A DNA stretch of 38,422 nt from a virus (IMGVR_UViG_2925919700_000005:1-38422); one strand, 5' to 3'. Shown: positions 1 through 38,422, counted from the first letter of the stretch. Notes: a model not told the origin generated them from the sequence alone. Made by a program: numbers and translations.

Positions 1-10
1 CACCCGATTT

Positions 11-3630: not shown

Positions 3631-3870
3631 TTGCCCCTGAATTTTGCCCCTGAACCAAAATCCCCTAGATTTCACTATCCCATTTTTGCCCCTGAAACCT
3701 ACTATTTTTGCCCCTGAAATTCTGGGAAACAGTGATTTTGCCCCTCATTTTTGCCCCTGAAATGCCAATAATTGCCCCTGAAAATCTAATTTTTGCCCCT
3801 GAAATTTGCCCCAGAAAAGGATTGGTGAGAAAAACTCTTTATAAAACATTAACTTAGCGAGGGGCAAAAG
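3631..3870. repeat. Iteron-like array of ~9 direct copies of TTTTGCCCCTGAA with one inverted copy
   Basis: Copies at ~3631, 3642, 3683, 3705, 3736 (variant CTCA), 3748, 3772, 3790, 3805 (variant CCAGAA); inverted copy GAGGGGCAAAAG at 3859-3870; spacers are 10-30 bp and irregular. Confidence 0.8.
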
Positions 3871-4012
3871 CGGGGGATCGGGTGTGCATAGATATTATAT
3901 AACACATTCGCTACGCTCATGTGTAAAACCAAAAACAACAAATAACCAAAAAGATATTAGGAGGGCGTAGCCCGACTGCGCGAAGCGCTAACCAATTACT
4001 TCTAGTAACACT

Positions 4013-4240
4013 AATTTAAACTAGATGATACTAGATGGTCTTAGAAGGAATTAACTAGTTTGCTCGCTCGCTTCGCTCACTCTCAAACGTCTGCGACGCC
4101 ACTGCGTGGCATCGAGAATCACTTCTGAAAGGATTTTCTTGAAAGGGATTTTAAACTAGTTACTAACTGATTCTAGAAAGATAGTAATAATCACTTTGAA
4201 GATAATAGTAGTTAACTGGTTACTAGATGATTCTAGATCA
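4013..4240. repeat. Three copies of a ~17-25 bp ACTAGATGAT(A/T)CTAGA-type direct repeat flanking a GC-rich structured core
   Basis: ACTAGATGATACTAGATGG (4020-4038), AACTAGTTACTAACTGATTCTAGAAAG (~4153-4180), AACTGGTTACTAGATGATTCTAGATCA (~4212-4238); GC-rich inverted repeats in 3961-4110. Confidence 0.6.
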
Positions 4241-4266
4241 CTTTAATGATCATGAAAGGTATTGGT

Positions 4267-4296
4267 TATCCCTTCGGGATTGCAACCTTCGGTTGC
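4267..4296 (+). other. Two tandem UUCG-tetraloop hairpins
   Basis: ATCCC-TTCG-GGAT and GCAACC-TTCG-GTTGC back to back. Confidence 0.5.
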
Positions 4297-4500
4297 TAAA
4301 TTGCTTCCGGATTATTATTTCTCCAAAAGAAAGATTCTTATATTCTAAAGATACTTCTTCGTTTTGATGATGATTTAATCAAAATCTATGAAGGAGGCGA
4401 AGCCGACTGAATACCAATTCCTTTCAAATTAGACAAAAATTTCTCGTTATAAATAATAGTGAACTTACTTTGATTCACTTTCTTTTAGAGGATTTCCACT

Positions 4501-4953
4501 ATGATCAATACTAAAACTCCTTTCATTCTTCTGGGTCTGAACCATGATGATAATCTGGCTATGATGCATGTTTTCGCTAATCGTGGTTATAACATCATTC
4601 GTCATTCCGAAGACTCCAATTTCTCAACTGCTTTCTATGCTCTTAAACGTAATGGTCGCCCTACGGTGATCGTAGACTGCTTTACTGATGAAGGTCGTGA
4701 ACAATACAACAACATTCCGGCAATTATTGTTCGTGATGACCTGCCGTTTGATGTTCGTGAATATGACGTTGATTTAGGCTCTTACTATGGGATCGCCGAT
4801 CTTGACCAGATTATGGCTGATTATGGTAAACAACCCGCTCAGGAAGCCCCAGAACACGATGAACAAGACGAAGATGACGACGACTACACACCAATCTGTT
4901 TCTCTTCTCACGGTGGCTTCTACGGTTACGATGAAGGCTTAGATATGCTGTAA
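4501..4953 (+). CDS. hypothetical acidic protein (150 aa); N-terminal pattern faintly resembles a receiver/flavodoxin-like fold
   Basis: GAGGA SD; CGTTATAAATAATAGTGA box 40 nt upstream; C-terminal run EHDEQDEDDDDY; alternating hydrophobic strands FILLG / YNIIRH / VIVDC / PAIIV. Confidence 0.6.
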   Translation: MINTKTPFILLGLNHDDNLAMMHVFANRGYNIIRHSEDSNFSTAFYALKRNGRPTVIVDCFTDEGREQYNNIPAIIVRDDLPFDVREYDVDLGSYYGIADLDQIMADYGKQPAQEAPEHDEQDEDDDDYTPICFSSHGGFYGYDEGLDML

Positions 4954-4975
4954 TTTAGGTCAACCCTTTGGCGTC

Positions 4976-5017
4976 TTGTCAAGGGGTATTGACAAAATTT
5001 TCTGACTTTTTTATGAT
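4976..5017 (+). promoter_or_regulatory. Sigma70-like promoter (TTGACA, 17 bp spacer, TATGAT) overlapped by an inverted repeat TTGTCAA-N6-TTGACAA
   Basis: -35 TTGACA at 4989-4994, -10 TATGAT at 5012-5017; inverted TTGTCAA at 4976-4982; further TTGACA-like boxes at 5026 and 5045. Confidence 0.45.
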
Positions 5018-5073
5018 TATCGCACTTGACAATTTTGAACCTATTTGACCTAGATTTGTAAAGAGGATGTAAC

Positions 5074-5406
5074 ATGAAAGAATTTACCATCACTAAATCC
5101 CTGTATGACTGGACTGTTAAAATCTCCGGCAAAACCGTTTCTGTAAGCCCTAGCCATGTAGAAAATGATTGGGGCGTATCCCGTGAAACTATCTCCCGTA
5201 GTATGCATGTTCCGTTTGATCTGATGTCCTTAACTGGTATTCATGCAATGCTGGAAGTTCGCGAACAATTCGAAGCTGGTAATCACAATGCGACTCCAGT
5301 TAGCAATCACCTTCTTACTAATGAAGAACGTGAAATCATCGAAAACTGGCGTTATGAATATGCGATTCCTTATTATGAAGAAGACCAAGTAGAAATCGAT
5401 TGGTAA
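5074..5406 (+). CDS. hypothetical protein (110 aa)
   Basis: AGAGGA SD; compact ORF; no recognisable family. Confidence 0.6.
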   Translation: MKEFTITKSLYDWTVKISGKTVSVSPSHVENDWGVSRETISRSMHVPFDLMSLTGIHAMLEVREQFEAGNHNATPVSNHLLTNEEREIIENWRYEYAIPYYEEDQVEIDW

Positions 5407-5502
5407 TAAATTTCTATCATAAATAAAAATGTTCCGGTGGTGATGCCGGAACTAGGAGGACCAATATCATTATCGCAAAACCGTTTAAGGGGAATTACTA
5501 CT

Positions 5503-6333
5503 ATGAATACTGTTACTGCTATGAATACTGCTGTTAAAACTGCTTCCGTGTCTCTGGTTGTTGATAACACCAAACCGCTGACCATGTCTACTTTGCAGAT
5601 CGCGCAAATGATGGATCGCGTAGACCGCCACCGTGATATTAAGCGAACTGTTGACCGTCTCGTTTCTTCCGGTGTAATTGTCCACACGCCAACGGCGCGC
5701 GAACAACTGGAAGATAAATTTGGTCGTTCTCGTGAAATTGAAGTTTATCTTCTTGATGAACGTTCGTCATATATTGTTGTTGCTCAAATTTCGCCAGAAT
5801 TTACCGCTTTTATCGTTGATGAATGGAAGCGACTGAAAGAAGAAAATGAAAAACTTCGCTCTACTCCGGTTAACCCGTATGCAGACTTTGAAGAAACCGA
5901 TTGGATCGAACTGGCATTAAAGAAAACTCGCGAAAATAAAAAGCTGATTGAACTTCATGTTCGCAAATCCGTAGATAGCCATTCAATGACCCGTCTGTTA
6001 GGAGCTAAAAAGGGCGCTACGAAGGTTAAAGAAGCACTGACGGCCTTGCGTACTGCTGGCTACATTGAGCGCGTCTACGATGAAAATAACAAGCCGTGTG
6101 GGTATGTTGCTAATGACTCTTCTCTGTCTTTCTGCCGCATGAATGCTCACTACCAACTTGAGTTTACTGTTGATGTTCTTCCTGTGCTGGTTGAATTGGG
6201 TGTTCTGGAAGAAGAACAAAAAGCAACTCTGAATCTTCCTAAGCCGAACAACACTATTCTGATTCAAAATAAAGCTGCTAAACAGATTCGTGAATCAGGT
6301 AACGTAATTTCCCTTGTTGATTTTGGGATCTGA
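5503..6333 (+). CDS. Rha-family phage regulatory protein / antirepressor-like
   Basis: N-terminal segment LTMSTLQIAQMMDRVDRHRDIKRTVDRL matches the Rha-type DNA-binding pattern as I recall it; start chosen at ATG 5503 (AAGGGG SD) rather than the track's GTG 5437. Confidence 0.55.
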   Translation: MNTVTAMNTAVKTASVSLVVDNTKPLTMSTLQIAQMMDRVDRHRDIKRTVDRLVSSGVIVHTPTAREQLEDKFGRSREIEVYLLDERSSYIVVAQISPEFTAFIVDEWKRLKEENEKLRSTPVNPYADFEETDWIELALKKTRENKKLIELHVRKSVDSHSMTRLLGAKKGATKVKEALTALRTAGYIERVYDENNKPCGYVANDSSLSFCRMNAHYQLEFTVDVLPVLVELGVLEEEQKATLNLPKPNNTILIQNKAAKQIRESGNVISLVDFGI

Positions 6334-15317: not shown

Positions 15318-18300
15318 ATGCAGTCGATCCAATTTAAACGAACAAATGTTTCTGGCAAAAAACCAACGCCGGAACAATTACAGGTCGGTGAGGTGGCAAT
15401 CAACCTTAAAGACCATGTTATTTTTACCAAAGACCGAGATCATGAAGTAGTTCAAATCTCTGTTTCTCCTGAAACTCACGCGGCACTAGAATCTAAAGTT
15501 GATGCTAACAAACAAGAATTGGATAGCACAATTGCAGTAAATGACCGCAATATTCACGCTAAAGTAGATGAAATTAAACAAACTACTGATTCTACTATCG
15601 CAGCAAATCACGCAGAAATTAACAATAAAGTTGATGTAATTAAACGCGAAACCGACGCGACAATCGAGGCCAATAAAAATAAAGCTGCTTCCGATCTTGC
15701 TGGTGTTAAAGCTGAATTGTCGGATACTATCAACGCTAATAAAAATGCGGCTGCTGTAGCAACTCAGGAACTGGACACCCGCATCAATAAAAAAGTTGAT
15801 GATATTAAATCCCGTACTGATGCAACCATCGCAAGCAATCACAAAGCAATCAATGACAAGGTTGATTTGATTAAGGCAGAAACTGACCGCACTATCGCAG
15901 CAAATCAAGCCTATGCGGAAAATCAGTTAACTGACACCTACAATAACCTTACTGGTGTGATTGCAGCTAATAAGCAAGAGGCAGCGGATAGCGTCGCAGC
16001 ATTAACCCGTGATGTTGAAGCCAAAAATTCAGCAATTCATAGCAAAGTTGACAATAACAAGTCTTACACTGATTCTGAACTTGCACGTTTAGAAAGCCGT
16101 ATTGATGCAGCCGATGGATCTGCTGATGGCAAGTACATCAAAAAACACGTAAACACTTATACTGATGGTTATTTGCTGTCTAAGACCGCAAACTATTTTG
16201 ATGATCCAAATGCGCGTAATCTTAATTACTTTGGTGCATTCCGCATGAATGACCTGGCGGGTCATATTGCAATGATCTTGCATGTTCCGCATCCATCTGG
16301 TGTTAATCATGCTCGTGGCTTTGAGTTCACTTATGGGTCTAATCCGGTTCATACGGTAAGAACATACGGCTATGATGAATTGGGTCATTTGGCATATTCT
16401 CACCGCATGTATCATGAAGGTGATAAACCTACTCCTGCCGAAATTGGCGCATATTCGAAAGCAGAAATTGACCGACTGTTCCAGAAGACGCTTAATTTTG
16501 GGATCGAGGGTGGTTGGTTTAAACTAGGCACTTTGACAATGCCACAGCAACACGGTCGTAGTGCTAAGATCCGCTTAGTTGGTGGTAACGGTTATAACGT
16601 CGGGATGAATGGACAAGCCAATATTATCGAATTGGTGATTCGATGCGGCAACAATAGCCCGAAAGGTGTTGTATTCAATGCGTATTATACTATTTGGCAT
16701 TATGAACAACATTTTTGCGCTATTCCAACCGATGGCGACAATTACGATCTTTACGCTTACTACGGTGCACATACAGGATTTGTTTTAGCAGAATATCAAG
16801 TTTCTTCCGGTGGTGTTTCTTTAAACCTGTTGGATACTCCTGAATATCTGGGTGGTGAAAAACCTGTTGCAGATGAAATTTTTGATGCTCTTAACATTTC
16901 ATCGTTCACTAACTTTAGCAACCGTGGAACGTTAAATTTTGCGGGAAACCATCAAGGCCAATATGACATTGAGCATTTGAACGAACAACAAACTAACAGC
17001 AAAAAGATGTTGCGTCGCTTCCGTAGTTCTGCTCCTGCCACTATCTGGCATGAGACAGTTGATGATAACGCATATCGTCTTGCTACTGGATACGAAGATA
17101 CAAATCAGGAATTATTGCTGACAGCAACAACCGGGTTACATGTCAAGAGATTAACATTGGATGGTGGTGCTGCTGGTGGAAATGCTGGTATTGATATTCG
17201 TCGAGGACCAAACGAATCAAGCCATTTTAATTTTATGGATTATCGAACTGGTCAAGATGTTCGTAATGGCTGGTTTGGTTTTGGTGATTTGACGACCAAA
17301 GATTTTATTTGGTGGAACGATAACGGTCAAAACTCGATAAACTTGATCGAAAACGGTGAATTGCATATTACTGGCGGTAAAGGCCAGAAAATTGTAATGA
17401 ATAGCGAAGTTGCATTATCTGAAAATGCTCGTTTGGCTGTTAAAGGTGGCAATTATGGCTTAATTTTTAGAAATGATGGTACTGGTTTCCATATACTGAC
17501 TACCGATTTAAAAGATTCTTTTGGAAATTGGAATAATCGTAGACCATTCAGCTATAATTTTGATGATGGTGGACTATATTTAGGTGGCACTGAAACTGCT
17601 CGTTGTTTGCATCTGGGAATTGATGGTAGCACCCGTCTTGAGGAGAACTTAGTTTTCAGGGCGGGATCTCGTCAATCAATGGACTATATTGAAATGATCC
17701 ATTGGGGTAACAGTAATACCGCTCGTGACAACGTTTTGAGTATGAAAGACTCGAAAGGATTCCTTGCTGAATTTGAACGCGTGGGTGGGACTAACGGCGT
17801 TAAAACCAGATTCTTTGGTGAAACCTTCACTGACGGTACATTATACCTAAATCAGATGAATAATAGCTCTGAACGATTCTCTATCAACAATTGGGGAAAT
17901 TCAGAAGTTGGACGCGCGGCAGTAATGGAAATCGGTGATTCCAAAGGTTATCACTTCTATACTGAACGCAGGACAGATAACAGTTTGGCGTTTGATGTTG
18001 CTGGCGCTTTTACTGTGCATGGACCTAACGGAATAACCATCAAAAACTCAACTGGTGCACGCCATATCTGGTTTAGAGATGATAGCGATGCAGAAAAGGC
18101 TGTTATCTGGGCTACAGATGAGGGTATTTTACATATACGAAATAATCATGGGGGTTCATTTAGTCATCACTTCCAGGGTGCAATGATTAAAGCGGGAGAG
18201 CAAGTTCCTTATAATAGTGAATACGCTCTTATCCGTGGTGAGGTTTCTGGTGGTGCATGGGATGACTGGCGCAACCGTCCTGCTGGTATTCTCTTAGATT

Positions 18301-18839
18301 GTCAGGATTCACATACCCAAGCATATTCAATTTGGAAAGCAACTCATTGGGGTGTTGATCATCTTGCGGCAATGGGTGTTCATGCTGGCGGTGGTCAAGC
18401 TACCGTAATGATGCATATGAACAAAGGCGGCTGGTATTCATGGTCTGCAAATGGTGATTTCACATCTAGTGCGTCGGTTTACTGTAACGATGTTTATATT
18501 CGTTCCGACCGTCGTCTGAAAATTAACGTTGAAGACTACGAAGAAAATGCGGTAGATAAGGTAAATAAACTAAAAGTTAAAACCTACGATAAAGTTAAGT
18601 CTCTTTCTGACCGCGAAGTCATCGCACATGAGATTGGTATTATCGCACAGGATTTACAAGAAATTTTACCGGAAGCTGTTAGCACTTCTAATGTCGGATC
18701 TCTTGATAACCCAGAAGAGATTTTAACAATTTCTAACTCTGCTGTGAACGCGCTTTTAATTAAAGCGGTCCAAGAAATGAGCGAAGAAAATAAACTTCTT
18801 CGTGAACGTCTTGCTGCAATTGAAGCTAAATTAGGGTAA
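15318..18839 (+). CDS. long tail fibre with C-terminal S74 intramolecular chaperone (autoproteolytic) domain
   Basis: N-terminal ~250 aa of ~22-residue repeats (KVDxIKxxTDxTIAANxxxIN); C-terminal YIRSDRRLKINVEDYE...LLIKAVQEMSEENKLLRERLAAIEAKLG is the S74 signature with a predicted cleavage at S|D. Confidence 0.85.
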   Translation: MQSIQFKRTNVSGKKPTPEQLQVGEVAINLKDHVIFTKDRDHEVVQISVSPETHAALESKVDANKQELDSTIAVNDRNIHAKVDEIKQTTDSTIAANHAEINNKVDVIKRETDATIEANKNKAASDLAGVKAELSDTINANKNAAAVATQELDTRINKKVDDIKSRTDATIASNHKAINDKVDLIKAETDRTIAANQAYAENQLTDTYNNLTGVIAANKQEAADSVAALTRDVEAKNSAIHSKVDNNKSYTDSELARLESRIDAADGSADGKYIKKHVNTYTDGYLLSKTANYFDDPNARNLNYFGAFRMNDLAGHIAMILHVPHPSGVNHARGFEFTYGSNPVHTVRTYGYDELGHLAYSHRMYHEGDKPTPAEIGAYSKAEIDRLFQKTLNFGIEGGWFKLGTLTMPQQHGRSAKIRLVGGNGYNVGMNGQANIIELVIRCGNNSPKGVVFNAYYTIWHYEQHFCAIPTDGDNYDLYAYYGAHTGFVLAEYQVSSGGVSLNLLDTPEYLGGEKPVADEIFDALNISSFTNFSNRGTLNFAGNHQGQYDIEHLNEQQTNSKKMLRRFRSSAPATIWHETVDDNAYRLATGYEDTNQELLLTATTGLHVKRLTLDGGAAGGNAGIDIRRGPNESSHFNFMDYRTGQDVRNGWFGFGDLTTKDFIWWNDNGQNSINLIENGELHITGGKGQKIVMNSEVALSENARLAVKGGNYGLIFRNDGTGFHILTTDLKDSFGNWNNRRPFSYNFDDGGLYLGGTETARCLHLGIDGSTRLEENLVFRAGSRQSMDYIEMIHWGNSNTARDNVLSMKDSKGFLAEFERVGGTNGVKTRFFGETFTDGTLYLNQMNNSSERFSINNWGNSEVGRAAVMEIGDSKGYHFYTERRTDNSLAFDVAGAFTVHGPNGITIKNSTGARHIWFRDDSDAEKAVIWATDEGILHIRNNHGGSFSHHFQGAMIKAGEQVPYNSEYALIRGEVSGGAWDDWRNRPAGILLDCQDSHTQAYSIWKATHWGVDHLAAMGVHAGGGQATVMMHMNKGGWYSWSANGDFTSSASVYCNDVYIRSDRRLKINVEDYEENAVDKVNKLKVKTYDKVKSLSDREVIAHEIGIIAQDLQEILPEAVSTSNVGSLDNPEEILTISNSAVNALLIKAVQEMSEENKLLRERLAAIEAKLG

Positions 18840-18877
18840 TTGGAAAGCGGGGAGAAATCTCCGCTAAGGATTCTTAT

Positions 18878-19174
18878 ATGGGATATTGGGTAAGTAGTGA
18901 AATTAATACTAAAATCGATGCTTTAAAATGGCATGTGTTTGATATTCCTAATGGATATGTTCCCGGACGTGCTGGTGTTGCCGTTTTGCGGCATACCGCT
19001 CGTGATGGTTGGGGCGATATGCATATTTTCGTTGACGGTGTGGTCGCCGCGCGTCGTCGTGGTGGTGGGGATTGGGGATTTACGGTTAATGCGTTTGTTC
19101 CTGCTGGATGTACTGTCACCTTTGGTCATGGGGGTGTCGGTGGTATTGAATACTTTAAATTTATGGAGTTTTAA
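18878..19174 (+). CDS. glycine-rich small protein, paralog 1 of 3 (98 aa)
   Basis: TAAGGA SD; shares M-x-x-W-V, W[FH]xIPNG[WY], GGGD and a basic aromatic C-terminus with the next two ORFs. Confidence 0.65.
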   Translation: MGYWVSSEINTKIDALKWHVFDIPNGYVPGRAGVAVLRHTARDGWGDMHIFVDGVVAARRRGGGDWGFTVNAFVPAGCTVTFGHGGVGGIEYFKFMEF

Positions 19175-19176
19175 TT

Positions 19177-19482
19177 ATGGCTGGATGGGTTGCTGGAAGA
19201 ATGGCTAATGCCATTAGCATTTATGCTAATGGCGGCTGGTTTGGTATCCCTAATGGTTGGGTGGCGGATTCATGCGGTATTGTGTCTGTTCATGCCGAAG
19301 CCGTTGGTGGCGGTGGTGACCTGGACGCAGAATTATATGTAAACGGTACTCTCGAATCAGGTCATCACGCTGGTAATGCAGGAAGTTGGGGAGCAAGTTC
19401 TTTAGTTGGTGCTGGCGCTACTGTCAGTTTTAGTATTGGTAAAGGAAGTTTAAACCACTTCCAATTTAGGAGAATGCAATAA
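19177..19482 (+). CDS. glycine-rich small protein, paralog 2 of 3 (101 aa)
   Basis: Starts 2 nt after the paralog-1 stop; GIPNGWVADSCGIVSVHAEAVGGGGD. Confidence 0.65.
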   Translation: MAGWVAGRMANAISIYANGGWFGIPNGWVADSCGIVSVHAEAVGGGGDLDAELYVNGTLESGHHAGNAGSWGASSLVGAGATVSFSIGKGSLNHFQFRRMQ

Positions 19483-19784
19483 TGGCATTTTGGGTAGATG
19501 GTGCTTTAGGTAATAGAGCAGGTAAAGCGAATCAAGGATGGTTTGATATTCCTAACGGTTGGACACCTGACGCTTTCGGCACGGTTTCATTTGGTGCTCA
19601 TTCTTCTGGTGGTGGCGGTGGTGACTCAGAATTGCTTTTGCATGGCTTTTGTGTGTCTGGAAGTCATAAGGGTCATGATTGGGGACAGATCCATTCTTGT
19701 ATTGTGCCGCAAGGGGCGGTAATTACCGTTAGCACAAATAGGGGGGTCGCTCATCTTCGTTATAGACGTTTGAGCAACCGCTAA
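19482..19784 (+). CDS. glycine-rich small protein, paralog 3 of 3 (100 aa)
   Basis: ATG overlaps the paralog-2 stop (TAATG); DIPNGWTPDAFGTVSFGAHSSGGGGGD. Confidence 0.65.
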   Translation: MAFWVDGALGNRAGKANQGWFDIPNGWTPDAFGTVSFGAHSSGGGGGDSELLLHGFCVSGSHKGHDWGQIHSCIVPQGAVITVSTNRGVAHLRYRRLSNR

Positions 19785-19838
19785 ATAAATAGAATTACGG
19801 GTATGTGCCCTATTGTTTAAAATAGAAGGAAAAGAATA

Positions 19839-20615: not shown

Positions 20616-21944
20616 CTGAGAGATCCCCTCATAATTTCCCCAAAACGTAACCATGTGTGAATAGATTTTGAGTAAGCAGGGTTGCAGCCACGAGTGAGTC
20701 TTCCCTTGTTATTGTGTAGCCAGAATGCCGCAAAACTTCCATGCCTAAGCGAACTGTTGAGAGTACGTTTCGATTTCTGACTGTGTTAGCCTGGAAGTGC
20801 TTGTCCCAACCTTGTTTCTGAGCATGAACGCCCGCAAGCCAACATGTTAGTTGAAGCATCAGGGCGATTAGCAGCATGATATCAAAACGCTCTGAGCTGC
20901 TCGTTCGGCTATGGCGTAGGCCTAGTCCGTAGGCAGGACTTTTCAAGTCTCGGAAGGTTTCTTCAATCTGCATTCGCTTCGAATAGATATTAACAAGTTG
21001 TTTGGGTGTTCGAATTTCAACAGGTAAGTTAGTTGCTAGAATCCATGGCTCCTTTGCCGACGCTGAGTAGATTTTAGGTGACGGGTGGTGACAATGAGTC
21101 CGTGTCGAGCGCTGATTTTTTCGGCCTTTAGAGCGAGATTTATACAATAGAATTTGGCATGAGATTGGATTGCTTTTAGTCAGCCTCTTATAGCCTAAAG
21201 TCTTTGAGTGACTAGATGACATATCATGTAAGTTGCTGATAGGTTTCCAGTTTTCCGCTCCTAGGTCTGCATATTGTACTTTTCCTCTTACTCGACTTAA
21301 CCAGTACCAACCCAGCTTCTCAACGGATTTATACCATGGCACTTTAAAGCCAGCATCACTGACAATGAGCGGTGTGGTGTTACTCGGTAGAATGCTCGCA
21401 AGGTCGGCTAGAAATTGGTCATGAGCTTTCTTTGAACATTGCTCTGAAAGCGGGAACGCTTTCTCATAAAGAGTAACAGAACGACCGTGTAGTGCGACTG
21501 AAGCTCGCAATACCATAAGCCGTTTTTGCTCACGGATATCAGACCAGTCAACAAGTACAATGGGCATCGTATTGCCCGAACAGATAAAGCTAGCATGCCA
21601 ACGGTATACAGCGAGTCGCTCTTTGTGGAGGTGACGATTACCTAACAATCGGTCGATTCGTTTGATGTTATGTTTTGTTCTCGCTTTGGTTGGCAGGTTA
21701 CGGCCAAGTTCGGTAAGAGTGAGAGTTTTACAGTCAAGTAAGGCGTGGCAAGCCAACGTTAAGCTGTTGAGTCGTTTTAAGTGTAATTCGGGGCAGAATT
21801 GGTAAAGAGAGTCGTGTAAAATATCGAGTTCGCACATTTTGTTGTCTGATTATTGATTTTTGGCGAAACCATTTGATCATATGACAAGATGTGTATCTAC
21901 CTTAACTTAATGATTTTGATAAAAATCATTAGGGGATTCATCAG
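20616..21944 (-). mobile_element. IS10 insertion sequence, complete (1329 bp)
   Basis: Ends CTGAGAGATCCCCTCATAATTTCCCC (inside end, 20616) and ...AAAATCATTAGGGGATTCATCAG (outside end, 21944); length 1329 bp; encodes the 402-aa IS10 transposase. Confidence 0.97.
20629..21837 (-). CDS. IS10 transposase
   Basis: 402-aa translation MCELDILHDSLYQFCPELHLKRL...HGYVLGKL matches the IS10/Tn10 transposase as I recall it; start is 107 bp inside the outside end. Confidence 0.97.
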   Translation of the reverse strand: MCELDILHDSLYQFCPELHLKRLNSLTLACHALLDCKTLTLTELGRNLPTKARTKHNIKRIDRLLGNRHLHKERLAVYRWHASFICSGNTMPIVLVDWSDIREQKRLMVLRASVALHGRSVTLYEKAFPLSEQCSKKAHDQFLADLASILPSNTTPLIVSDAGFKVPWYKSVEKLGWYWLSRVRGKVQYADLGAENWKPISNLHDMSSSHSKTLGYKRLTKSNPISCQILLYKSRSKGRKNQRSTRTHCHHPSPKIYSASAKEPWILATNLPVEIRTPKQLVNIYSKRMQIEETFRDLKSPAYGLGLRHSRTSSSERFDIMLLIALMLQLTCWLAGVHAQKQGWDKHFQANTVRNRNVLSTVRLGMEVLRHSGYTITREDSLVAATLLTQNLFTHGYVLGKL

Positions 21945-31653: not shown

Positions 31654-32001
31654 ATGGCTAAAAATATTTTTACTGAATTTCCTACTTATCCGGTCGATCA
31701 GCTTTCCGGTATTTTTATTAATGGCATTAGCCCAGAATCCATGACACATGATTTTGAGGCGAAGAGAGTTAAACATAAACAATATAAAGAATGTATCCGC
31801 GATCATGAAAAAGGGACCGTGTTTTGTGTCGCTACATTGGCTAAACGTCCTAAGTATCGTTTTCGTGTAGGACAAGAAGTTGATGTGGTTAATCCTTATA
31901 GCTTTAACTGTCTGGGCGATGCACGCGCGGTGTGTGTAGGCACTGCTCCTTATTATATCAAGGGTATGCGCTTTATTGGTTATATCTTCGAAATGATCTA
32001 A
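31654..32001 (+). CDS. hypothetical protein (115 aa)
   Basis: ORF with GGGGG SD; Cys-containing; no recognisable family. Confidence 0.55.
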   Translation: MAKNIFTEFPTYPVDQLSGIFINGISPESMTHDFEAKRVKHKQYKECIRDHEKGTVFCVATLAKRPKYRFRVGQEVDVVNPYSFNCLGDARAVCVGTAPYYIKGMRFIGYIFEMI

Positions 32002-32010
32002 GGGGGTAAT

Positions 32011-32364
32011 ATGTTAAGTAAGCATTTTTCTCGCAAGGAATTTAAATGTAAATGCGGAAAATGTGATTATGATACAATCGACGCTGAATTACTGGTGATT
32101 CTTGAGGATGTACGCGAACACTTCGGGAAACCAGTAATTATTAACAGTGGGAACCGTTGTCCGACTCATAACAAGAATGTAGGCGGTGCAACCAACAGCT
32201 ATCACGTTCGAGGTCGTGCGGCTGACATTGTGGTCAAGGGTGTCTCCCCTGATATTGTCCATGCTTATCTTGATGGGAAATATCCTACTCAATACGGCTT
32301 AGGCAAATATAAAACCTTTACGCATATTGATTCCAGATCAAAAAAATCACGGTGGAATGGATAA
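32011..32364 (+). CDS. endolysin, peptidase M15 family (zinc D-Ala-D-Ala carboxypeptidase / L-Ala-D-Glu peptidase type)
   Basis: SYHVRGRAADIVV (S-x-H-x-x-G-x-A-x-D) and a downstream THID motif form the Zn-binding H-D-H pattern; N-terminal FSRKEFKCKCGKC is typical of this family; AGGGGGTAAT-ATG. Confidence 0.8.
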   Translation: MLSKHFSRKEFKCKCGKCDYDTIDAELLVILEDVREHFGKPVIINSGNRCPTHNKNVGGATNSYHVRGRAADIVVKGVSPDIVHAYLDGKYPTQYGLGKYKTFTHIDSRSKKSRWNG

Positions 32365-32396
32365 AACAAAAGCGCCTCTAGTGGGCGCTTTTTTGT
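32364..32396. terminator. Bidirectional rho-independent terminator between convergent genes
   Basis: AAGCGCC-TCTAGT-GGGCGCTT flanked by an A-run upstream and a T-run downstream. Confidence 0.7.
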
Positions 32397-33886
32397 TATA
32401 TGGCAATTGTTTTAGTTGCATAGCTGAACTTGTCGGTTAGATAATAGCGGATTCTCTCAAGTGCATGTTTTACCGCATAATTTTTATGCTTGACTTTTCC
32501 GTTACGACCGAATATACACAGATGATCGATAAGATCCCAGACCGTTGCAATGTCTTTCGAACCATGTTTACGCAATGCACGACCGATACTCTGACGAACG
32601 ATAGTTGATTCCTTCACGGGATGACCGAAAATAACATGGTGCAAATTCTTAATTGAAACACCAGTAGAGAAAACACCATAGGATGCAACGCAAATGATCC
32701 CTGTTTCCCCTTCCGCTAATTTCTTAAATTCATCACGTTCTTCTGTCTTAACTCCACCGTCAATATAATAAACCTTGTCGTGTACCTTCTGTAACGCGTC
32801 ATACATAAGTTTTCCGTGCTTAGTATTGCGGAACATCAGGAATACGTTTTCTCCCTTCTTAGCGAGTTTTAGCGCCAAATTACAAGCAAACTTATTTCGT
32901 CGTGGATTAGACGTAATATACTTGATCTCTTCCGCATATTCTCTACCCTTAACCGCGCTACATTCCTCATCGGTATAACGAAGGAAAAGACAGTTAATTT
33001 TCAGTTTTGTCACCTGCCCTTCTTCCATCAGGCGGTCAATACTCACGATCTTAGAAATATCACCGAAAAGCCCGACATACTGCATTAAATGGCACTTTGA
33101 TTCTTTCGGGGAACCAGTCATGCCGATCTTAAATTGGCAATGATTCATTCCGTTAATGATATTGGTAATATTTTTGGCACTAGCCTTATGCGATTCATCA
33201 ACTATCAACATTCCATATTGTTTGAACCATTCAGGAGGCATCTTGCACGCTGATTGCCAGGTACTAACCGTGATTAACCTGTCTCCCGGATGTTTCCCGC
33301 TACCACTCATCATTGTATGAATTGCTTCATAAGGGAATAGCCTATAATCGATGAAATCATCCCTCATTTGAACCACTAGCGATGTAGTAGGGACAATGAT
33401 TAACACTTTTCCGGTGTAATGCTCTAAGTACCAACGAGACAGCATACAAGCAATCAATGACTTACCCGCACTGGTAGGAAGAACCAGCATTCTACGGCGA
33501 TTATGAATACCCTGAAAGACTGCCTCCCTTTGATACCAGTAAGGATTGATTTTATTGGAACCGGAATACACTTCTAGGGAATCAATCCATTCATTAATCG
33601 CGTCTTTGGTTACATCTTCCTTCTCAAGCAATCGCGGGTCAATCCAGACTGAATAGCCCATATTTTTAACGAAGACACCCAACGTTTTTAATAGTCCAAT
33701 TGGTAGGGTATTTTCATGCGTAAACAGTCTTATTCGTCCATCCCAGCCGGAATACTTGTAGCGGGGGCTAAACCTAGCCCCTTCAACCTCAAACGAGAAA
33801 TAATCCCTTAATTCCATTCCGATAGAAGGAGAGCAATCAACCTTAACGAAACTGTAATCTTGAAAATGAATTTTAATATCTTGCAT
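32396..33886 (-). CDS. UvsW-like SF2 DNA helicase
   Basis: Walker A LPTSAGKS, IIVPTT, DExH box IVDESH and VWDLIDH; overall resemblance to T4 UvsW as recalled; start set to ATG 33886, overlapping the upstream stop. Confidence 0.8.
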   Translation of the reverse strand: MQDIKIHFQDYSFVKVDCSPSIGMELRDYFSFEVEGARFSPRYKYSGWDGRIRLFTHENTLPIGLLKTLGVFVKNMGYSVWIDPRLLEKEDVTKDAINEWIDSLEVYSGSNKINPYWYQREAVFQGIHNRRRMLVLPTSAGKSLIACMLSRWYLEHYTGKVLIIVPTTSLVVQMRDDFIDYRLFPYEAIHTMMSGSGKHPGDRLITVSTWQSACKMPPEWFKQYGMLIVDESHKASAKNITNIINGMNHCQFKIGMTGSPKESKCHLMQYVGLFGDISKIVSIDRLMEEGQVTKLKINCLFLRYTDEECSAVKGREYAEEIKYITSNPRRNKFACNLALKLAKKGENVFLMFRNTKHGKLMYDALQKVHDKVYYIDGGVKTEERDEFKKLAEGETGIICVASYGVFSTGVSIKNLHHVIFGHPVKESTIVRQSIGRALRKHGSKDIATVWDLIDHLCIFGRNGKVKHKNYAVKHALERIRYYLTDKFSYATKTIAI

Positions 33887-34455
33887 TAGTTCCACTCCAC
33901 ACTTGCAATATTCTTTATATTGTTTAGTGATTTATTGCAGTAGTGGAATGTTTCAGTTTTGCCGTATTCAATCCCGCCTATACCCACATCCAGTAATCTC
34001 TTTATTGCTCTTTCAGTGGCTAAAGCATGTTTCATTGATGGCATTTCACCAGCAAAGACAATATCAAAGTTATGACCGGGATTGCGTACACCCAGATTAA
34101 TGCGTCGCTTGATGATTGACTTTGTTACACCAAATTTACCAATATCCCCTGATTTCATTACATAGAGATAAGGCACACCCGCTTTATATTGAAAGTAATC
34201 ACTTTTGAGACATGCACAGCGTTTACCTTCATTAAGCAGGTTGGTAGCTGATTTGTCGGCTCTATTGCCGCATCGGGTACATGTAAGAGCAATTCTTGAA
34301 TGAAGCCCTTTAAACTCACCCAGAAAGCCATGAAAGACTAACGGTAAGTCCTTCTCTTTGATGTGAGTCAGAATGCGTTGTTCTAATGCCGATGGAGTTA
34401 CAGCACGGGAGGATTTAGGAGTAAAAACAATATCTTTAGCCATTACTGGAATCAT
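33886..34455 (-). CDS. GIY-YIG-like (T5orf172-type) protein with N-terminal zinc ribbon; possible homing endonuclease or DNA-binding nuclease
   Basis: CTRCGN...CAC Cys cluster followed by YLYVMKSGDIGKFGVTKSIIKRR (GIY-YIG-like Y-x-Y...K-F-G-x-T...R pattern). Confidence 0.5.
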   Translation of the reverse strand: MIPVMAKDIVFTPKSSRAVTPSALEQRILTHIKEKDLPLVFHGFLGEFKGLHSRIALTCTRCGNRADKSATNLLNEGKRCACLKSDYFQYKAGVPYLYVMKSGDIGKFGVTKSIIKRRINLGVRNPGHNFDIVFAGEMPSMKHALATERAIKRLLDVGIGGIEYGKTETFHYCNKSLNNIKNIASVEWN

Positions 34456-34609
34456 ATAGACCTCACTTTTTTAACTTATAGGCATAACCTCAATATGGTT
34501 GGTTTGGGATTTAGGGTCGCGTATTATACACATTCAGATAGAGAATGCAATAGTAAGACAATTTTCTCTAATAAATAGTAGTGAGCTTATTATTTTAGAG
34601 GAAACTACT

Positions 34610-35785
34610 ATGAAACTTGCTTACGCTGCCGAAATTCCTTTTGTTAAGAAAACTCGCGGTTTATCGCCGGAAGAGTACCAACAACGAATCATCGCTAAAC
34701 TGGAACCTGCTTTCGTATTTGGTGGATTTATCCTACCGTGGAAGGGTAATCACACTTACTTTCGAATCTACAATTTAGATACACAAGAATATAAGGACTA
34801 CAAATTACGCAAACTGGAAGATACTAACGGGGGTGAGTTACTCCAGACTGAAAAGGCTGTATGGTTGAAAATGGAATCTCGTTGTAATGAGAAGGGAAAG
34901 AAATTCCTCGGATGGCAAGGAGAATGGAAAGGGCGCAACAAGACAAAATCCCGTGTTTTGTGCCCTGAACACAATCAAATCATGACGCCATCTCTATTAC
35001 ATGCTCTCAAAGATGATTTCGATTTTGATTGCAAAATCTGTATGGCTGAAAAATCCCAACGGGTAAGAAGTGGCAAGACTTTTGATGAAGTTATTAAGGA
35101 CAAAGAGACAATCATCAATGCACGTTGCGAGAGTACGCCTTACACCTTCAAAGGATTCATCATAAACACCCCACACCTAAAGGATGTTAAATTTAAAACC
35201 TATTGCAAGACACATAATCACGAATGGGAATCTCATTTAAGATGTGCTGATTCTTTCACTTGTCCGCTTTGCATTAAAGACCAACTGGTGCAACTGTCTA
35301 ACCGGACTTATCAGGGTAAGGCTAGTTTCTATATTCAATTATTAGATGACAAATTTATTAAATTTGGAATCACTACCCGGAAACCAGAAGAACGAATGAG
35401 AGAGCAAACCAGAAAGAGCAACTTCACTCACCGCTTAATCTTTACTCATGAGTTTGAGGATGGTTGGAAAGCCGTTGATTTAGAGCATGAAGTAAAACAA
35501 CGCTTCAAGACTCATGCAGCACCCTACAAAGATTTCAAGGATGGATGGTCGGAAACTCTGACTATTGATGAGTTACCACACTTACAGCAACTGGTTTATG
35601 ACTACCTAACCAATCAACCGGACGAGGCTAATATGTGGGTATCCCAGAAAGATGTATTTGATGACGATACATTCAAGCTACATACTCACTTCTACGGCAT
35701 CAATAAACCGGAATTTTTCTGTATTGATGACGACAGTCCTGATTTAATGGATGAATACTTTAATACTCTCTTAGACGCTGTCTAA
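34610..35785 (+). CDS. multi-zinc-finger protein with C-terminal GIY-YIG/T5orf172-like domain
   Basis: Several C/H clusters (CPEHN...CKIC; CKTHNHEWESHLRCADSFTCPLC) then FYIQLLDDKFIKFGITTRKPEERMREQ; TAATAAATAGTAGTGAG box 25 nt upstream; start set at ATG 34610 (track start is TTG 34499). Confidence 0.55.
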   Translation: MKLAYAAEIPFVKKTRGLSPEEYQQRIIAKLEPAFVFGGFILPWKGNHTYFRIYNLDTQEYKDYKLRKLEDTNGGELLQTEKAVWLKMESRCNEKGKKFLGWQGEWKGRNKTKSRVLCPEHNQIMTPSLLHALKDDFDFDCKICMAEKSQRVRSGKTFDEVIKDKETIINARCESTPYTFKGFIINTPHLKDVKFKTYCKTHNHEWESHLRCADSFTCPLCIKDQLVQLSNRTYQGKASFYIQLLDDKFIKFGITTRKPEERMREQTRKSNFTHRLIFTHEFEDGWKAVDLEHEVKQRFKTHAAPYKDFKDGWSETLTIDELPHLQQLVYDYLTNQPDEANMWVSQKDVFDDDTFKLHTHFYGINKPEFFCIDDDSPDLMDEYFNTLLDAV

Positions 35786-35795
35786 CGCAATTAAA

Positions 35796-35832
35796 TTAAA
35801 AAGGGGTACATCTGTACCCCTTAACTGTTTTA
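35796..35832. terminator. Palindromic hairpin GGGGTACA-TC-TGTACCCC between convergent genes (terminator-like)
   Basis: Perfect 8-bp inverted repeat around a central TC, A-run upstream and T-rich downstream. Confidence 0.55.
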
Positions 35833-35858
35833 GCTCGTTATACGTCGATTTAGGCCGC

Positions 35859-37538
35859 TTAAATTCCAAATTCCTGTAATGGACCTGGTATTTCCTCTTC
35901 TGGTTTCCAGTTCTTATCTGTCAGCATGTCTAAACATGGATGCAGAACAAGCCCGTTACTCTCCAGAATCTGCCTATCATTGATAGTTTTCAAATCGACA
36001 AAGATTTGTCCTTTCCTCGTTCCTCTTGAATTTTCTATTACAACTCTCTGGGTCTTTCCATCGATGTATTCCAGTACAAACAAGTTTTTGTTTCTGTCAA
36101 TCCTGCTACACCCGATCCGCTTTAGAGCTTGCTTAATCTTAAACCGGACCTTTAGTCGTTCCTCGTTGTAAACATCTTCTAAATCAAATTCTGCGAGCTT
36201 CTCCCAGCCTTGAGAGTCAACAGAATACATTTCCTCTTCTGCCATCTTGATCTGATTGTAGAGTGTTTCACGCTCGCTATTGAGGGTAGTAATCTGATCG
36301 GCTAGTTCCTTCGTTGCTCCTGTCATAGCAGAAAGGGCAATCAGGTTATCAATCTTGCGTGATATTTCATCAACCTGTACTTTCAACGCCGGAACCGGAT
36401 TAGCCTTATCCTCAGCAATCCAGATTTTATCAGCCAGCAATTGCAATACAGCTTTCTCTAATTGATCACCTCGAAAACTCCAGTTTGGATGCTCGCAATC
36501 AAGTCTACGTGAACGGGTCGCATCACATGTATAACGATACTGGTCAGAACGTTTGTTCGTTCCCTTCACTTTAACCATAGCGCAACCGCAATGATCACAT
36601 TTCAATAGGCCAATACCACTAAGCAGGGGGATCGGTTTAACTTCTTCCTTGTCTCCAAAGTTCCATGCTCTAGCACCAATATTTTTCTTAAGGTGATAGA
36701 ACGTAGCATCATCAATAACACGAGGGTAATAATCCTTTAACTCATAGTTAACACCATCAACAGAGACCTCCTTGATACCAATCAAAGCGCGGGTATGAAA
36801 CAACCTTTCAACCATTGCCCGTGACCATTTTGAATGCTTCTTGTTGCTTACTGCTGGTGGTGGTGCATATGTCTCGTTAAGGTGATCCAGTATTTCGGCG
36901 GTTGAACGTCCATTCTTCCGTAATTCCACAATCTCCTGAACAACAGGGAAGTACACCGGATGAGGCAGCACATAACCGGAAGTGGTATCAGTCCACCACA
37001 TATTCTTTCCAACTTCCTCGATTGCCACTGCCGGATTCTGGGGATTTTCTTGATGCGATTTAATCTTAATCAGTGCGCTTGAATTAGTACGATTGCGCTT
37101 AGTCTGGCTTTCCTCATTACCACGGATGAATAAAAGGATGGAGAACATCAGGTCCATCGGGTTAGCGGTAACAGTATCCAGCGAGTAGATCTTGTTATCC
37201 ATGCCAGTAACAATGGTTATCCCCCTACGGATTATCGAAAGGAATAACTCCTGCGCACTGACAATATCGGCACGGGATAAACGGTCCAAGTTTTCAATGA
37301 ATAGCCAGCTACCAACAGGAACGGATCTACCAATTGCATCAAGGAAACGAGATAGCGCCCCTGTTTTAGAGTTAGCACCTTTAAACGCAGATACACCCAG
37401 ATCCTGATAATCATTTACCAGTTCTAAGTCATACTTTGCCGCAATCTCTCTCGCCATCCTGATTTGTCGTTCATAACTCGAACCATCACTCTGACGCATA
37501 GACGAGAAGCGAATATACGAATATAGTTTAGTTTTCAT
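35859..37538 (-). CDS. large serine recombinase (resolvase/invertase-type catalytic domain + recombinase domain + zinc ribbon)
   Basis: N-terminal YIRFSSMRQSDGSSYERQ (catalytic Ser motif), ENLDRLSRAD, Cys cluster CDHCGCAMV...YRYTCD, C-terminal coiled coil; 559 aa. Confidence 0.85.
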   Translation of the reverse strand: MKTKLYSYIRFSSMRQSDGSSYERQIRMAREIAAKYDLELVNDYQDLGVSAFKGANSKTGALSRFLDAIGRSVPVGSWLFIENLDRLSRADIVSAQELFLSIIRRGITIVTGMDNKIYSLDTVTANPMDLMFSILLFIRGNEESQTKRNRTNSSALIKIKSHQENPQNPAVAIEEVGKNMWWTDTTSGYVLPHPVYFPVVQEIVELRKNGRSTAEILDHLNETYAPPPAVSNKKHSKWSRAMVERLFHTRALIGIKEVSVDGVNYELKDYYPRVIDDATFYHLKKNIGARAWNFGDKEEVKPIPLLSGIGLLKCDHCGCAMVKVKGTNKRSDQYRYTCDATRSRRLDCEHPNWSFRGDQLEKAVLQLLADKIWIAEDKANPVPALKVQVDEISRKIDNLIALSAMTGATKELADQITTLNSERETLYNQIKMAEEEMYSVDSQGWEKLAEFDLEDVYNEERLKVRFKIKQALKRIGCSRIDRNKNLFVLEYIDGKTQRVVIENSRGTRKGQIFVDLKTINDRQILESNGLVLHPCLDMLTDKNWKPEEEIPGPLQEFGI

Positions 37539-37550
37539 ACCATTTCCAAA

Positions 37551-37587
37551 ACAAAAAGCCCCTACCGCGTATTATAACGATAGGGGC
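37551..37587 (-). terminator. Rho-independent terminator immediately upstream of the recombinase start
   Basis: GCCCCTA ... TAGGGGC with a T-run on the minus strand (A-run 37551-37557 on plus). Confidence 0.55.
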
Positions 37588-37603
37588 ATTGGTTAGTAAG
37601 TCA

Positions 37604-37849
37604 TTAATATTTCTTTCCAGTTAGTTTTGCATCACGTTTATTAATATCCTCGATATGACTCCATACACACGCAGTAATAAAGTCGTCATCGTCACCAACT
37701 CCGGCAACCTGTGCTAATTCAGTACACAGTTGATTTAAAGAAGGTGCAACGGCAGCACGCTTGACACTATCACCCTGTACATATTGTTCGGCATTTGCAG
37801 CACCAACCAAACCCAGAGCAAGAACGATACCAGCGATAATCTTTTTCAT
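37604..37849 (-). CDS. small secreted (periplasmic) protein with signal peptide
   Basis: MKKIIAGIVLALGLVGAANA|EQ: classic signal peptide with AxA cleavage site; two Cys in the mature part; AGAGGA SD. Confidence 0.65.
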   Translation of the reverse strand: MKKIIAGIVLALGLVGAANAEQYVQGDSVKRAAVAPSLNQLCTELAQVAGVGDDDDFITACVWSHIEDINKRDAKLTGKKY

Positions 37850-37890
37850 AATTGAATCCTCTTTGAATGAATTACGATATATTTATATCG

Positions 37891-38016
37891 TTAAAAATTG
37901 ATGCTAATTACCAGACCAAACACAACCGCACCAATCAAATCAATCCAGTTAATACACAATCCGCTATATTCTTTCTTGAATGTCTTGGATGAAATGCCAT
38001 CATGAAATTGTTTCAT
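37891..38016 (-). CDS. small membrane peptide (41 aa), below the ORF-track cutoff
   Basis: GGGGTGAG SD; translation MKQFHDGISSKTFKKEYSGLCINWIDLIGAVVFGLVISINF with a C-terminal TM helix. Confidence 0.4.
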   Translation of the reverse strand: MKQFHDGISSKTFKKEYSGLCINWIDLIGAVVFGLVISINF

Positions 38017-38022
38017 TGCTCA

Positions 38023-38100
38023 CCCCATACTAACGACAAGACAAGAAAGACTAATCATAGTTGTGAGACTTCCTCCCACGAATGAGATAAAAGCTAACAT
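38023..38100 (-). CDS. small hydrophobic peptide (25 aa), below the ORF-track cutoff
   Basis: GGAGA SD; translation MLAFISFVGGSLTTMISLSCLVVSM (25 residues; stop 38023-38025 included); a terminator-like hairpin (38115-38135) lies upstream on the minus strand. Confidence 0.35.
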
Positions 38101-38152
38101 GTTTGATTCTCCATTTAAAAAGCGGTGGGAATTGCACCCACCAAATTAGAAA

Positions 38153-38422
38153 TTACTTCTTGCTAATAAACTCTTTGTGGATAAAATCTAAGACTTCCTT
38201 TAACTTCTTATCGGTGTCAATCATCGCCGGAAGTTCTTCTTTAATATCGCGAGGAAGATACACATTACCTTTCCAGAACAAGCAACCACATTGAGCAATC
38301 GAATAGCTGAACATCCATTCACAATCTTGTTCTATCTCCCAGAATCTAACCTGCTCATCTTCGAGTTGAAGTTCGATTCCACGGCGGCGAGCATAGTTAT
38401 GGATTGCTTTGGTAATGTTCAT
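38153..38422 (-). CDS. hypothetical protein (89 aa or longer; start at or beyond the window edge)
   Basis: ORF runs to the last base of the window; Cys-rich (CEW...CGC); may be 5'-truncated by the window. Confidence 0.45.
   Translation of the reverse strand: MNITKAIHNYARRRGIELQLEDEQVRFWEIEQDCEWMFSYSIAQCGCLFWKGNVYLPRDIKEELPAMIDTDKKLKEVLDFIHKEFISKK

Follow-up and report, generated by a model that had tools for sequence, protein, structure and literature searches.

A large serine integrase and a T4-like accessory island with predicted homing-endonuclease genes in an Escherichia coli prophage inserted in ycdX

The question raised by IMGVR_UViG_2925919700_000005:1-38422, a 38,422-nucleotide (nt) stretch of viral DNA that we refer to as the window herein, is whether the four genes at its right end work as one system. 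A preliminary description had grouped a UvsW-like helicase, two GIY-YIG zinc-finger proteins and a large serine recombinase (32396-37587) as one cluster, possibly a selfish mobile cassette, an integration module, or an invertible or defence-related system. All four open reading frames are present as described, and Pfam, phrog and structure matches support each domain assignment with E-values too small for chance to explain. However, while the genes are real, they are not one system. The region is best explained as the right arm of a prophage holding two functionally separate modules, an integrase module and an unrelated T4-like accessory island. We consider it probable that this separate island carries selfish endonuclease genes and is still trading DNA with virulent Krischviruses, the RB49 group of T4-like phages. 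The observations that bear on this are the domains, the attachment sites, mosaic identity, presence and absence among relatives, the swapping of alleles, and the endonuclease genes found at the same borders in Krischviruses.

Over its right 8.4 kb the window matches the chromosome of E. coli KSC64 at 100% identity, and the annotation of that chromosome places phage terminase, portal, capsid, tail and lysis genes between two halves of ycdX. This identity, together with phage genes flanked on both sides by ycdX halves, indicates that the window is a 38.5-kb temperate, lambda-like E. coli prophage that splits the host gene ycdX.

The sole integrase candidate of this prophage is the 559-amino acid (aa) recombinase encoded on the minus strand at 35859-37538. 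The Pfam families Recombinase (PF07508, 4.3e-9) and Zn_ribbon_recom (PF13408, 1.1e-10) both scored over their cut-offs, and residues 1-145, when scanned separately, matched Resolvase (PF00239, 1.7e-14) with 54.6 bits against a cut-off of 23.3. Alignment to 3GUV, the only solved structure matching the recombinase and one of low similarity (E 1e-3), places Ser12 within the motif YIRFSS at the catalytic Ser. The protein also matched the phrog_95 integrase family (3e-63), while residues 402-454 gave only a weak match to a coiled-coil-type Pfam family (APG6_N, E 0.098) and NCBIfam returned only weak similarity to XisF and CcrB. These matches indicate a complete large serine recombinase with all three expected domains.

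We reconstructed the attachment sites by aligning both prophage junctions to intact ycdX of E. coli K-12. Host identity extends to CCCGGAAA in attL and begins at AATCCC in attR; these limits confine the crossover to AA, and this dinucleotide is all that attL, attR and attB have in common. The rebuilt attP of ~58 bp, GTGTTATTGTGGGTACATGATATTAGGG-AA-CCCGAACGTAGTCAACCCCCAATAACAC, is an imperfect palindrome of 28 + 2 + 28 nt whose arms are symmetric about AA at 20 of 28 positions and, in their outer part, at 13 of 14. The corresponding attB, CCCGGA-AA-TCCCAAAT, lies inside ycdX. Both features, the crossover at two non-palindromic base pairs and an attP of ~58 bp with imperfect dyad symmetry, are those used by large serine integrases.

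The last 3 nt of the attL P′ arm occupy window positions 1-3 (plus strand), with the AA crossover ~25 nt to the left of position 1. At the other end, the attR P arm and AA core fall at window-equivalent positions 38437-38466, that is, 15-44 nt past the right end, with AA at 38465-38466. Both attachment sites therefore lie just outside the window, and the prophage measures 38,491 bp from core to core. The same attR junction is found in six other strains, and Salmonella relatives occupy the same chromosomal site as the ycdX prophage. RefSeq begins its 3′ ycdX pseudogene fragment at window position 38408; since our junction is at 38465/38466, the first ~58 nt of that fragment are phage DNA.

Taken together, the AA crossover, the palindromic attP and the location of the sites at the prophage ends indicate that the recombinase is the prophage integrase and acts at those ends. 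As an integration module, it would join attP to attB at the non-palindromic AA and so split ycdX. The attachment sites thus bear out the earlier suggestion of an integration module of a temperate element. We found no report of ycdX as a prophage or serine-recombinase site in the literature searched, and within that search the ycdX target and its attachment sites appear to be new for large serine recombinases. For E. coli and Salmonella, they supply a defined pair of attP and attB whose natural target lies inside ycdX.

The preliminary description had looked for the recombinase sites elsewhere, near 35786-35858 and 37539-37603 on either side of the gene. Those positions hold terminators, and the actual sites are ~25 nt to the left and 44 nt to the right of the window. 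The first terminator is a bidirectional terminator-like hairpin at 35801-35822, between the convergent large nuclease and recombinase genes. The second, at 37587-37558 on the minus strand, has 11 pairs (7 of them G-C) and a T tail, and lies 10-20 nt upstream of the recombinase ATG. We read the hairpins beside the recombinase gene as terminators because their stems are G+C-rich and followed by T tails; the one before the recombinase start had been recognized correctly. This latter hairpin ends the upstream gene for an 81-aa moron-like protein, and homology with relatives breaks exactly at 37587. Because the recombinase gene follows the terminator of the moron-like gene, its expression in a lysogen would probably be low.

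Hairpins on both sides of the gene, together with a perfect 17-nt inverted repeat around the endolysin gene and uvsW, could also suggest that the recombinase drives an invertible or excisable segment within 32.4-37.6 kb from sites flanking its own gene, given that serine recombinases include invertases. Yet the protein is a 559-aa enzyme of the integrase type and not a ~190-aa invertase with a C-terminal helix-turn-helix such as Hin, Gin or Pin, the hairpins are terminators, and the recombinase has its actual sites at the two ends of the prophage. Flanking inverted repeats of a suitable kind were not seen, and none of the relatives examined departs from this gene order and orientation, around the 17-mer pair included. 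We therefore regard an invertible system, which the preliminary description had entertained, as almost certainly wrong. As for the repeat itself, TAAACAATATAAAGAAT occurs at 31776-31792 and 33910-33926, flanking the end of an open reading frame (31654-32001), the endolysin gene and uvsW; the second copy falls where the 3′ end of the small nuclease gene is conserved. In the window, chance alone would give ~0.05 such matches. Both copies are retained in most relatives and absent from all four Krischvirus loci examined, and no inversion was seen.

A relative inserted in codB (E. coli 06-00048, 5512-8416) encodes a 561-aa recombinase that is 73% identical to ours overall and 46-60% identical in residues 200-350, which make up the DNA-recognition domains. 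The ycdX and codB recombinases thus offer a compact natural retargeting pair for studying how large serine recombinases change specificity. In the same codB relative, an IS3 element truncates the large nuclease gene.

The second module, the accessory island at 32393-35800, is best explained as a descendant of the uvsY-uvsW-inh region of a T4-like phage of the Krischvirus lineage. On its left it is bordered by a bidirectional terminator-like hairpin (32368-32392) of 10 pairs with T tails on both strands, between the endolysin gene (32011-32364, plus strand) and the uvsW stop codon; homology to a relative without uvsW (L018) ends at ~32366. On its right the border is the hairpin at 35801-35822, and homology to all relatives resumes at ~35771-35775.

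The gene that ties the island to T4-like phages most directly is uvsW (32396-33886, minus strand), which encodes a 496-aa, full-length orthologue of T4 UvsW. Its open reading frame spans 32396-33895, but the start that agrees with homologues and RefSeq, and that is most likely the true one, is the ATG at 33886 (MQDIK...) rather than the upstream GTG. The protein matched UvsW_N (PF21241, 2e-34), ResIII and Helicase_C in Pfam and aligned with the T4 UvsW structure 2OCA over residues 3-494, that is, full length (E 2e-183), and its Walker A (PTSAGKS) and DExH (DESH) motifs are intact. In NCBIfam, the helicase matches were generic only. Krischviruses were the only phage records with nucleotide similarity to the helicase gene, and over the N-terminal 260 aa the identity to Krischvirus UvsW is 73.5-82%.

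This similarity is unevenly distributed along the gene. At 32535-33065, a patch with sharp borders has only ~14 mismatches in 530 nt (97.4% identity) to an RB49-type Krischvirus, whereas outside the patch uvsW is 56-76% identical to RB49 and the flanking parts carry 25-65% mismatches. Over the same stretch, two other prophages (L005 and L013) have alleles with just ~70% identity to both RB49 and the window. Since these alleles are so much more distant, the patch points to recent conversion of this prophage lineage by Krischvirus sequence. The uvsW locus appears to have been rearranged in a virulent phage too: in Krischvirus vB_EcoM_G37-3 (3866-5479), a gene of 1614 nt annotated merely as 'similar to helicase' carries many stops in the uvsW frame, and window positions 32810-33005 align to it twice, consistent with a partial internal duplication.

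Relatives of the prophage indicate that the island is accessory. In a survey of 5,426 complete E. coli genomes, sequence from the recombinase side was present in at least 54, and uvsW in only 17. The preliminary description had proposed checking whether relatives lack the block, and many do: beyond the absence of uvsW from all but these 17, four of the uvsW-bearing prophages are without both nuclease genes. The slot bounded by the endolysin and recombinase terminators differs in content from one relative to the next. For instance, some relatives have a full-length uvsY convergent with uvsW and two tandem fragments of baseplate genes (gp27/gp51) that are 97-100% identical to Krischviruses, and one has a uvsY fragment 86.6% identical to Krischvirus uvsY. 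Another, without uvsW, carries the 5′ two-thirds of inh (91.7% identical to RB49), a gene that in RB49 adjoins uvsW on its other side; a CapR-family gene comes after it. These uvsY, gp27/gp51 and inh fragments imply that the slot holds pieces, apparently of different ages, of one T4-like region (gp27...uvsY-uvsW-inh). Other relatives have unrelated cargo in this position; the slot of E. coli VTB96775v (4762-6025), which lacks uvsW, holds genes for 72-aa and 332-aa proteins with no Pfam match.

The condition of uvsW itself could be taken to mean that UvsW is a core replication and recombination helicase of the temperate phage and that the nuclease genes are incidental neighbours. The open reading frame is intact in 17 of 17 E. 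coli copies and in Salmonella, the ratio of nonsynonymous to synonymous substitution rates (dN/dS) is 0.07-0.17, consistent with purifying selection, and a partial scan of left-arm open reading frames recognized no other replication helicase. Against such a role, uvsW is missing from most related prophages that share the integrase, lysis and tail genes (17 versus at least 54), and the gene is a mosaic with virulent-phage DNA. Its absence from most relatives leaves us to consider a core role very improbable. A literature search for uvsW in prophages returned nothing relevant.

The island reading is extended by the two zinc-finger genes next to uvsW. The smaller (33886-34455, minus strand) is a free-standing gene of 189 aa, or 185 aa from 34443 in RefSeq, and its stop codon overlaps the uvsW start in the sequence TAATG, as the preliminary description had noted. 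Its product has one CapR CxxC...CxC zinc ribbon (PF21817, 25.2 bits against a cut-off of 24.2; motif LTCTRCG...KRCAC) and a T5orf172/MUG113 domain with support for a GIY-YIG fold, and it matched the phrog_681 'endonuclease' family (6e-19). The larger gene (34610-35785, plus strand) encodes 391 aa with two CapR modules (37.5 bits over two stretches, same cut-off) and a C-terminal MUG113/T5orf172 domain of the GIY-YIG superfamily (MUG113, 26.2 bits against 22.3), and matched phrog_681 at 3.9e-44. NCBIfam gave no match for either. The region between the two divergent genes (34456-34609) presumably holds their promoters, and short inverted repeats lie at 34562-34611.

Both genes can be assigned, by their domains, to the CapR-domain/T5orf172 (GIY-YIG fold) homing-endonuclease type and are thus predicted nuclease genes. 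CapR plus T5orf172 is a homing-endonuclease family of ICP1, T5-like and T4-like phages (Barth, Dunham & Seed 2023, PMC10448857; Netter et al. 2021, PMC8096241) and has been linked to the boundaries of phage-phage exchange (PMC10448857, PMC8096241). The family is named after CapR, a repressor of ICP1 capsid genes in the PLE satellite and a domesticated relative of the T5orf172 endonuclease (PMC8096241, PMC10448857). This precedent (PMC8096241; PMC10448857), the CapR zinc fingers in both proteins, and the divergent arrangement of the genes around a common control region with inverted repeats could suggest that the two proteins are likewise domesticated DNA-binding regulators of prophage or invading-phage transcription. 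The catalytic positions fit poorly with that idea. In the small protein, Y94, G102, K103, G105, R113 and E144 are invariant in 13 alleles with identity down to 42%; over alleles as divergent as 19-42% identity, neither paralogue varies at the motif positions Y...GKxG...R...E...G.TET; and the Krischvirus homologue has the R, E and G.TET that both paralogues keep without exception. A GIY-YIG active site (Tyr, Lys/Gly motif, Arg, Glu) kept at such allele identities, along with turnover and allele swapping that are the behaviour of selfish nuclease genes, makes a regulatory role hardly probable.

The turnover of these genes is considerable. Among the 17 uvsW-bearing prophages, 12 have both nuclease genes in the form seen in the window, one has a divergent large allele, and the remaining four have lost both through two separate microhomology deletions between imperfect 8-15-nt repeats. 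What remains of the large gene is its start codon with 7 more codons, and of the small gene its last 35 codons; the stretch 34529-34630 is retained. Prophages whose recombinases are 97% identical can carry nuclease alleles that are only 42% (small) or 25% (large) identical; alleles 25-42% identical sit within backbones that are 95-97% identical. All alleles are intact, with dN/dS of 0.13-0.42 for the nuclease genes. Divergent small alleles share identical C-terminal 23-30 residues at the uvsW junction, which implies that cassettes have replaced one another between fixed borders. A third CapR/T5orf172 gene is present in one relative, beyond the recombinase.

Endonuclease genes are also found at the borders of uvsW in virulent phages. 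The best phage homologue of the large nuclease, at 29.7% identity (E 5e-35), lies in Krischvirus Whisky between uvsW and uvsW.1, directly downstream of uvsW, and Krischvirus G5211 has a seg-type GIY-YIG gene, unrelated in sequence, 4 nt upstream of uvsW. At the nucleotide level, neither the nuclease genes nor their flanks showed similarity to Krischvirus loci beyond uvsW. The suggestion that the GIY-YIG genes are selfish mobile cassettes agrees with their presence and absence, the swapping of their alleles, and the endonuclease genes at the same borders in T4-like phages.

These observations fit a scheme in which the nucleases would introduce double-strand breaks, near uvsW, into endonuclease-free alleles in co-resident phage genomes. 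Homologous repair would then copy the nuclease gene together with flanking DNA, which would keep the island mosaic and let it trade sequence with virulent Krischviruses infecting the lysogen. That nuclease breaks drive the exchange is suggested by the known behaviour of the family and the position of the genes, and nuclease-driven exchange has been proposed for virulent phages and satellites (PMC10448857). A more specific version, in which the prophage-borne island would cut infecting Krischvirus genomes at uvsW-inh and DNA would then pass both ways through homology with the resident uvsW, seems to us rather unlikely. If it were true, the prophage would be a reservoir from which genes for endonucleases, T4 recombination and tail fibres pass between lifestyles, and at the same time a means of marker exclusion employed by the lysogen.

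Several points weigh against the proposal of an endonuclease-bordered island in continuing exchange. Within uvsW, the 97% patch is in the 3′ half, away from both nuclease genes, and nuclease cuts need not be invoked to explain it. Purifying selection on uvsW could reflect a function in the prophage or selection in earlier T4-like hosts. No clean empty homing site was found among the relatives, as those free of the genes are deletion derivatives; because they keep the start codon and the 3′ end, they do not define the insertion site. A tblastn search of 50,697 phage records for a donor of the nuclease genes gave at most 30% identity, and IMG/VR scans returned only prophage-type contigs of the same family; with no copy above 30% identity in a sequenced T4-like phage or IMG/VR contig, no donor phage was identified. 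The KSC64 copy of the prophage may be defective, since an IS10-type insertion sits among its tail genes (an IS10/ISVsa5 transposase gene of the IS4 family at 20629-21837, minus strand, 98.7% identical to IS10). Lastly, cleavage, homing, integration and excision are activities that we infer from the sequence.

An alternative use of the same genes would be anti-phage defence, with the helicase and two nucleases acting in superinfection exclusion against T4-like phages. In its explicit form, the nucleases would cut incoming Krischvirus DNA while UvsW (with UvsY in some relatives) would disturb or redirect recombination-dependent replication. In favour of this, prophage defence genes are typically found in a variable cargo slot next to the integrase, where the island sits; defence systems often pair a helicase with a nuclease; the captured DNA has its homologues in Krischviruses of the same host; and uvsW is under purifying selection. 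However, PADLOC-DB 2.0 had no match for the nucleases, the recombinase or the neighbouring small genes, and UvsW gave only generic superfamily 2 (SF2) helicase matches (best PbeA, 4.8e-12, partial); the helicase is an orthologue of the phage's own UvsW and not a defence helicase. Moreover, whether the nuclease genes are lost or swapped does not depend on the helicase, one relative lacks uvsW but has a nuclease gene, and obviously non-functional Krischvirus fragments (gp27/51, inh′) in the same slot fit passive capture better. We thus consider defence, whether in the general or the explicit form, distinctly unlikely, and the PADLOC result speaks against the defence-related system raised in the preliminary description.

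Outside the region under study, the prophage holds a second block of T-even DNA (15318-19800). The C-terminal ~530 aa of its 1173-aa tail-fibre protein correspond to a T4-type long-tail-fibre distal subunit (phrog_1699, 5e-135); nt 16404-19800 are 84.5% identical to Krischvirus G37-3; and 17800-18794 and 18783-19785, downstream small genes included, are 96% identical to other T-even phages. A further variable cargo slot lies upstream of the recombinase terminator (37588-38152). In the window it contains the moron-like gene (37604-37849), whose 81-aa secreted-type product has a signal-peptide-like N-terminus, and in relatives a 137-aa protein, a 113-aa protein or a 348-aa CapR/T5orf172 gene.

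We found no report, in the literature searched, of an endonuclease-bordered island common to a temperate prophage and virulent T4-like phages, and to that extent the arrangement is new. It offers a tractable case of recent DNA flow between virulent T4-like phages and a temperate prophage, with tracts of 97-100% identity where homing-endonuclease-type genes sit. Every part belongs to a known family, and none is a new kind of system. The integrase resembles those of phiC31, Bxb1, A118, SPbeta (SprA) and TP901-1 in its resolvase domain with a Ser nucleophile, its recombinase domain and its zinc-ribbon domain, and resembles large serine integrases generally in an imperfectly palindromic attP of ~58 bp, a 2-bp non-palindromic core and the lack of long direct repeats. 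SPbeta integrates in spsM and splits that host gene, and the attB inside ycdX is a parallel case. Unlike the known large serine integrases, ours has ycdX of E. coli and Salmonella as its target, and no recombination directionality factor was identified.

The nuclease genes resemble the CapR/T5orf172 genes of ICP1, T5-like and T4-like phages in having one or more CapR CxxC...CxC fingers followed by a T5orf172/MUG113 domain, in being free-standing, and in their position next to an essential or replication gene, at the edge of a block common to otherwise unrelated phages. They differ in residing in an integrated temperate prophage rather than a virulent phage or satellite, in their identity of at most 30% to any phage copy sequenced, and in having a predicted activity. 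With the uvsY-uvsW-inh region of Krischviruses (RB49, Phi1, G5211, Whisky), the island shares full-length UvsW orthology, the 97.4% tract of 530 nt, the convergent uvsY/uvsW kept in relatives, and endonuclease genes, which in some Krischviruses stand at both uvsW borders. In contrast to that region, the prophage copy is without uvsW.1 and uvsY.-2, the window is also without uvsY, and the genome around uvsW is a temperate, siphovirus-type one in which T4 replication or recombination genes are otherwise lacking. Finally, free-standing nuclease genes between conserved genes, with flanking mosaicism like that of co-conversion, recall the seg and mob genes and marker exclusion of T4, although the subfamily here is T5orf172 with a CapR finger, where T4 has SegA-G or Mob HNH enzymes.

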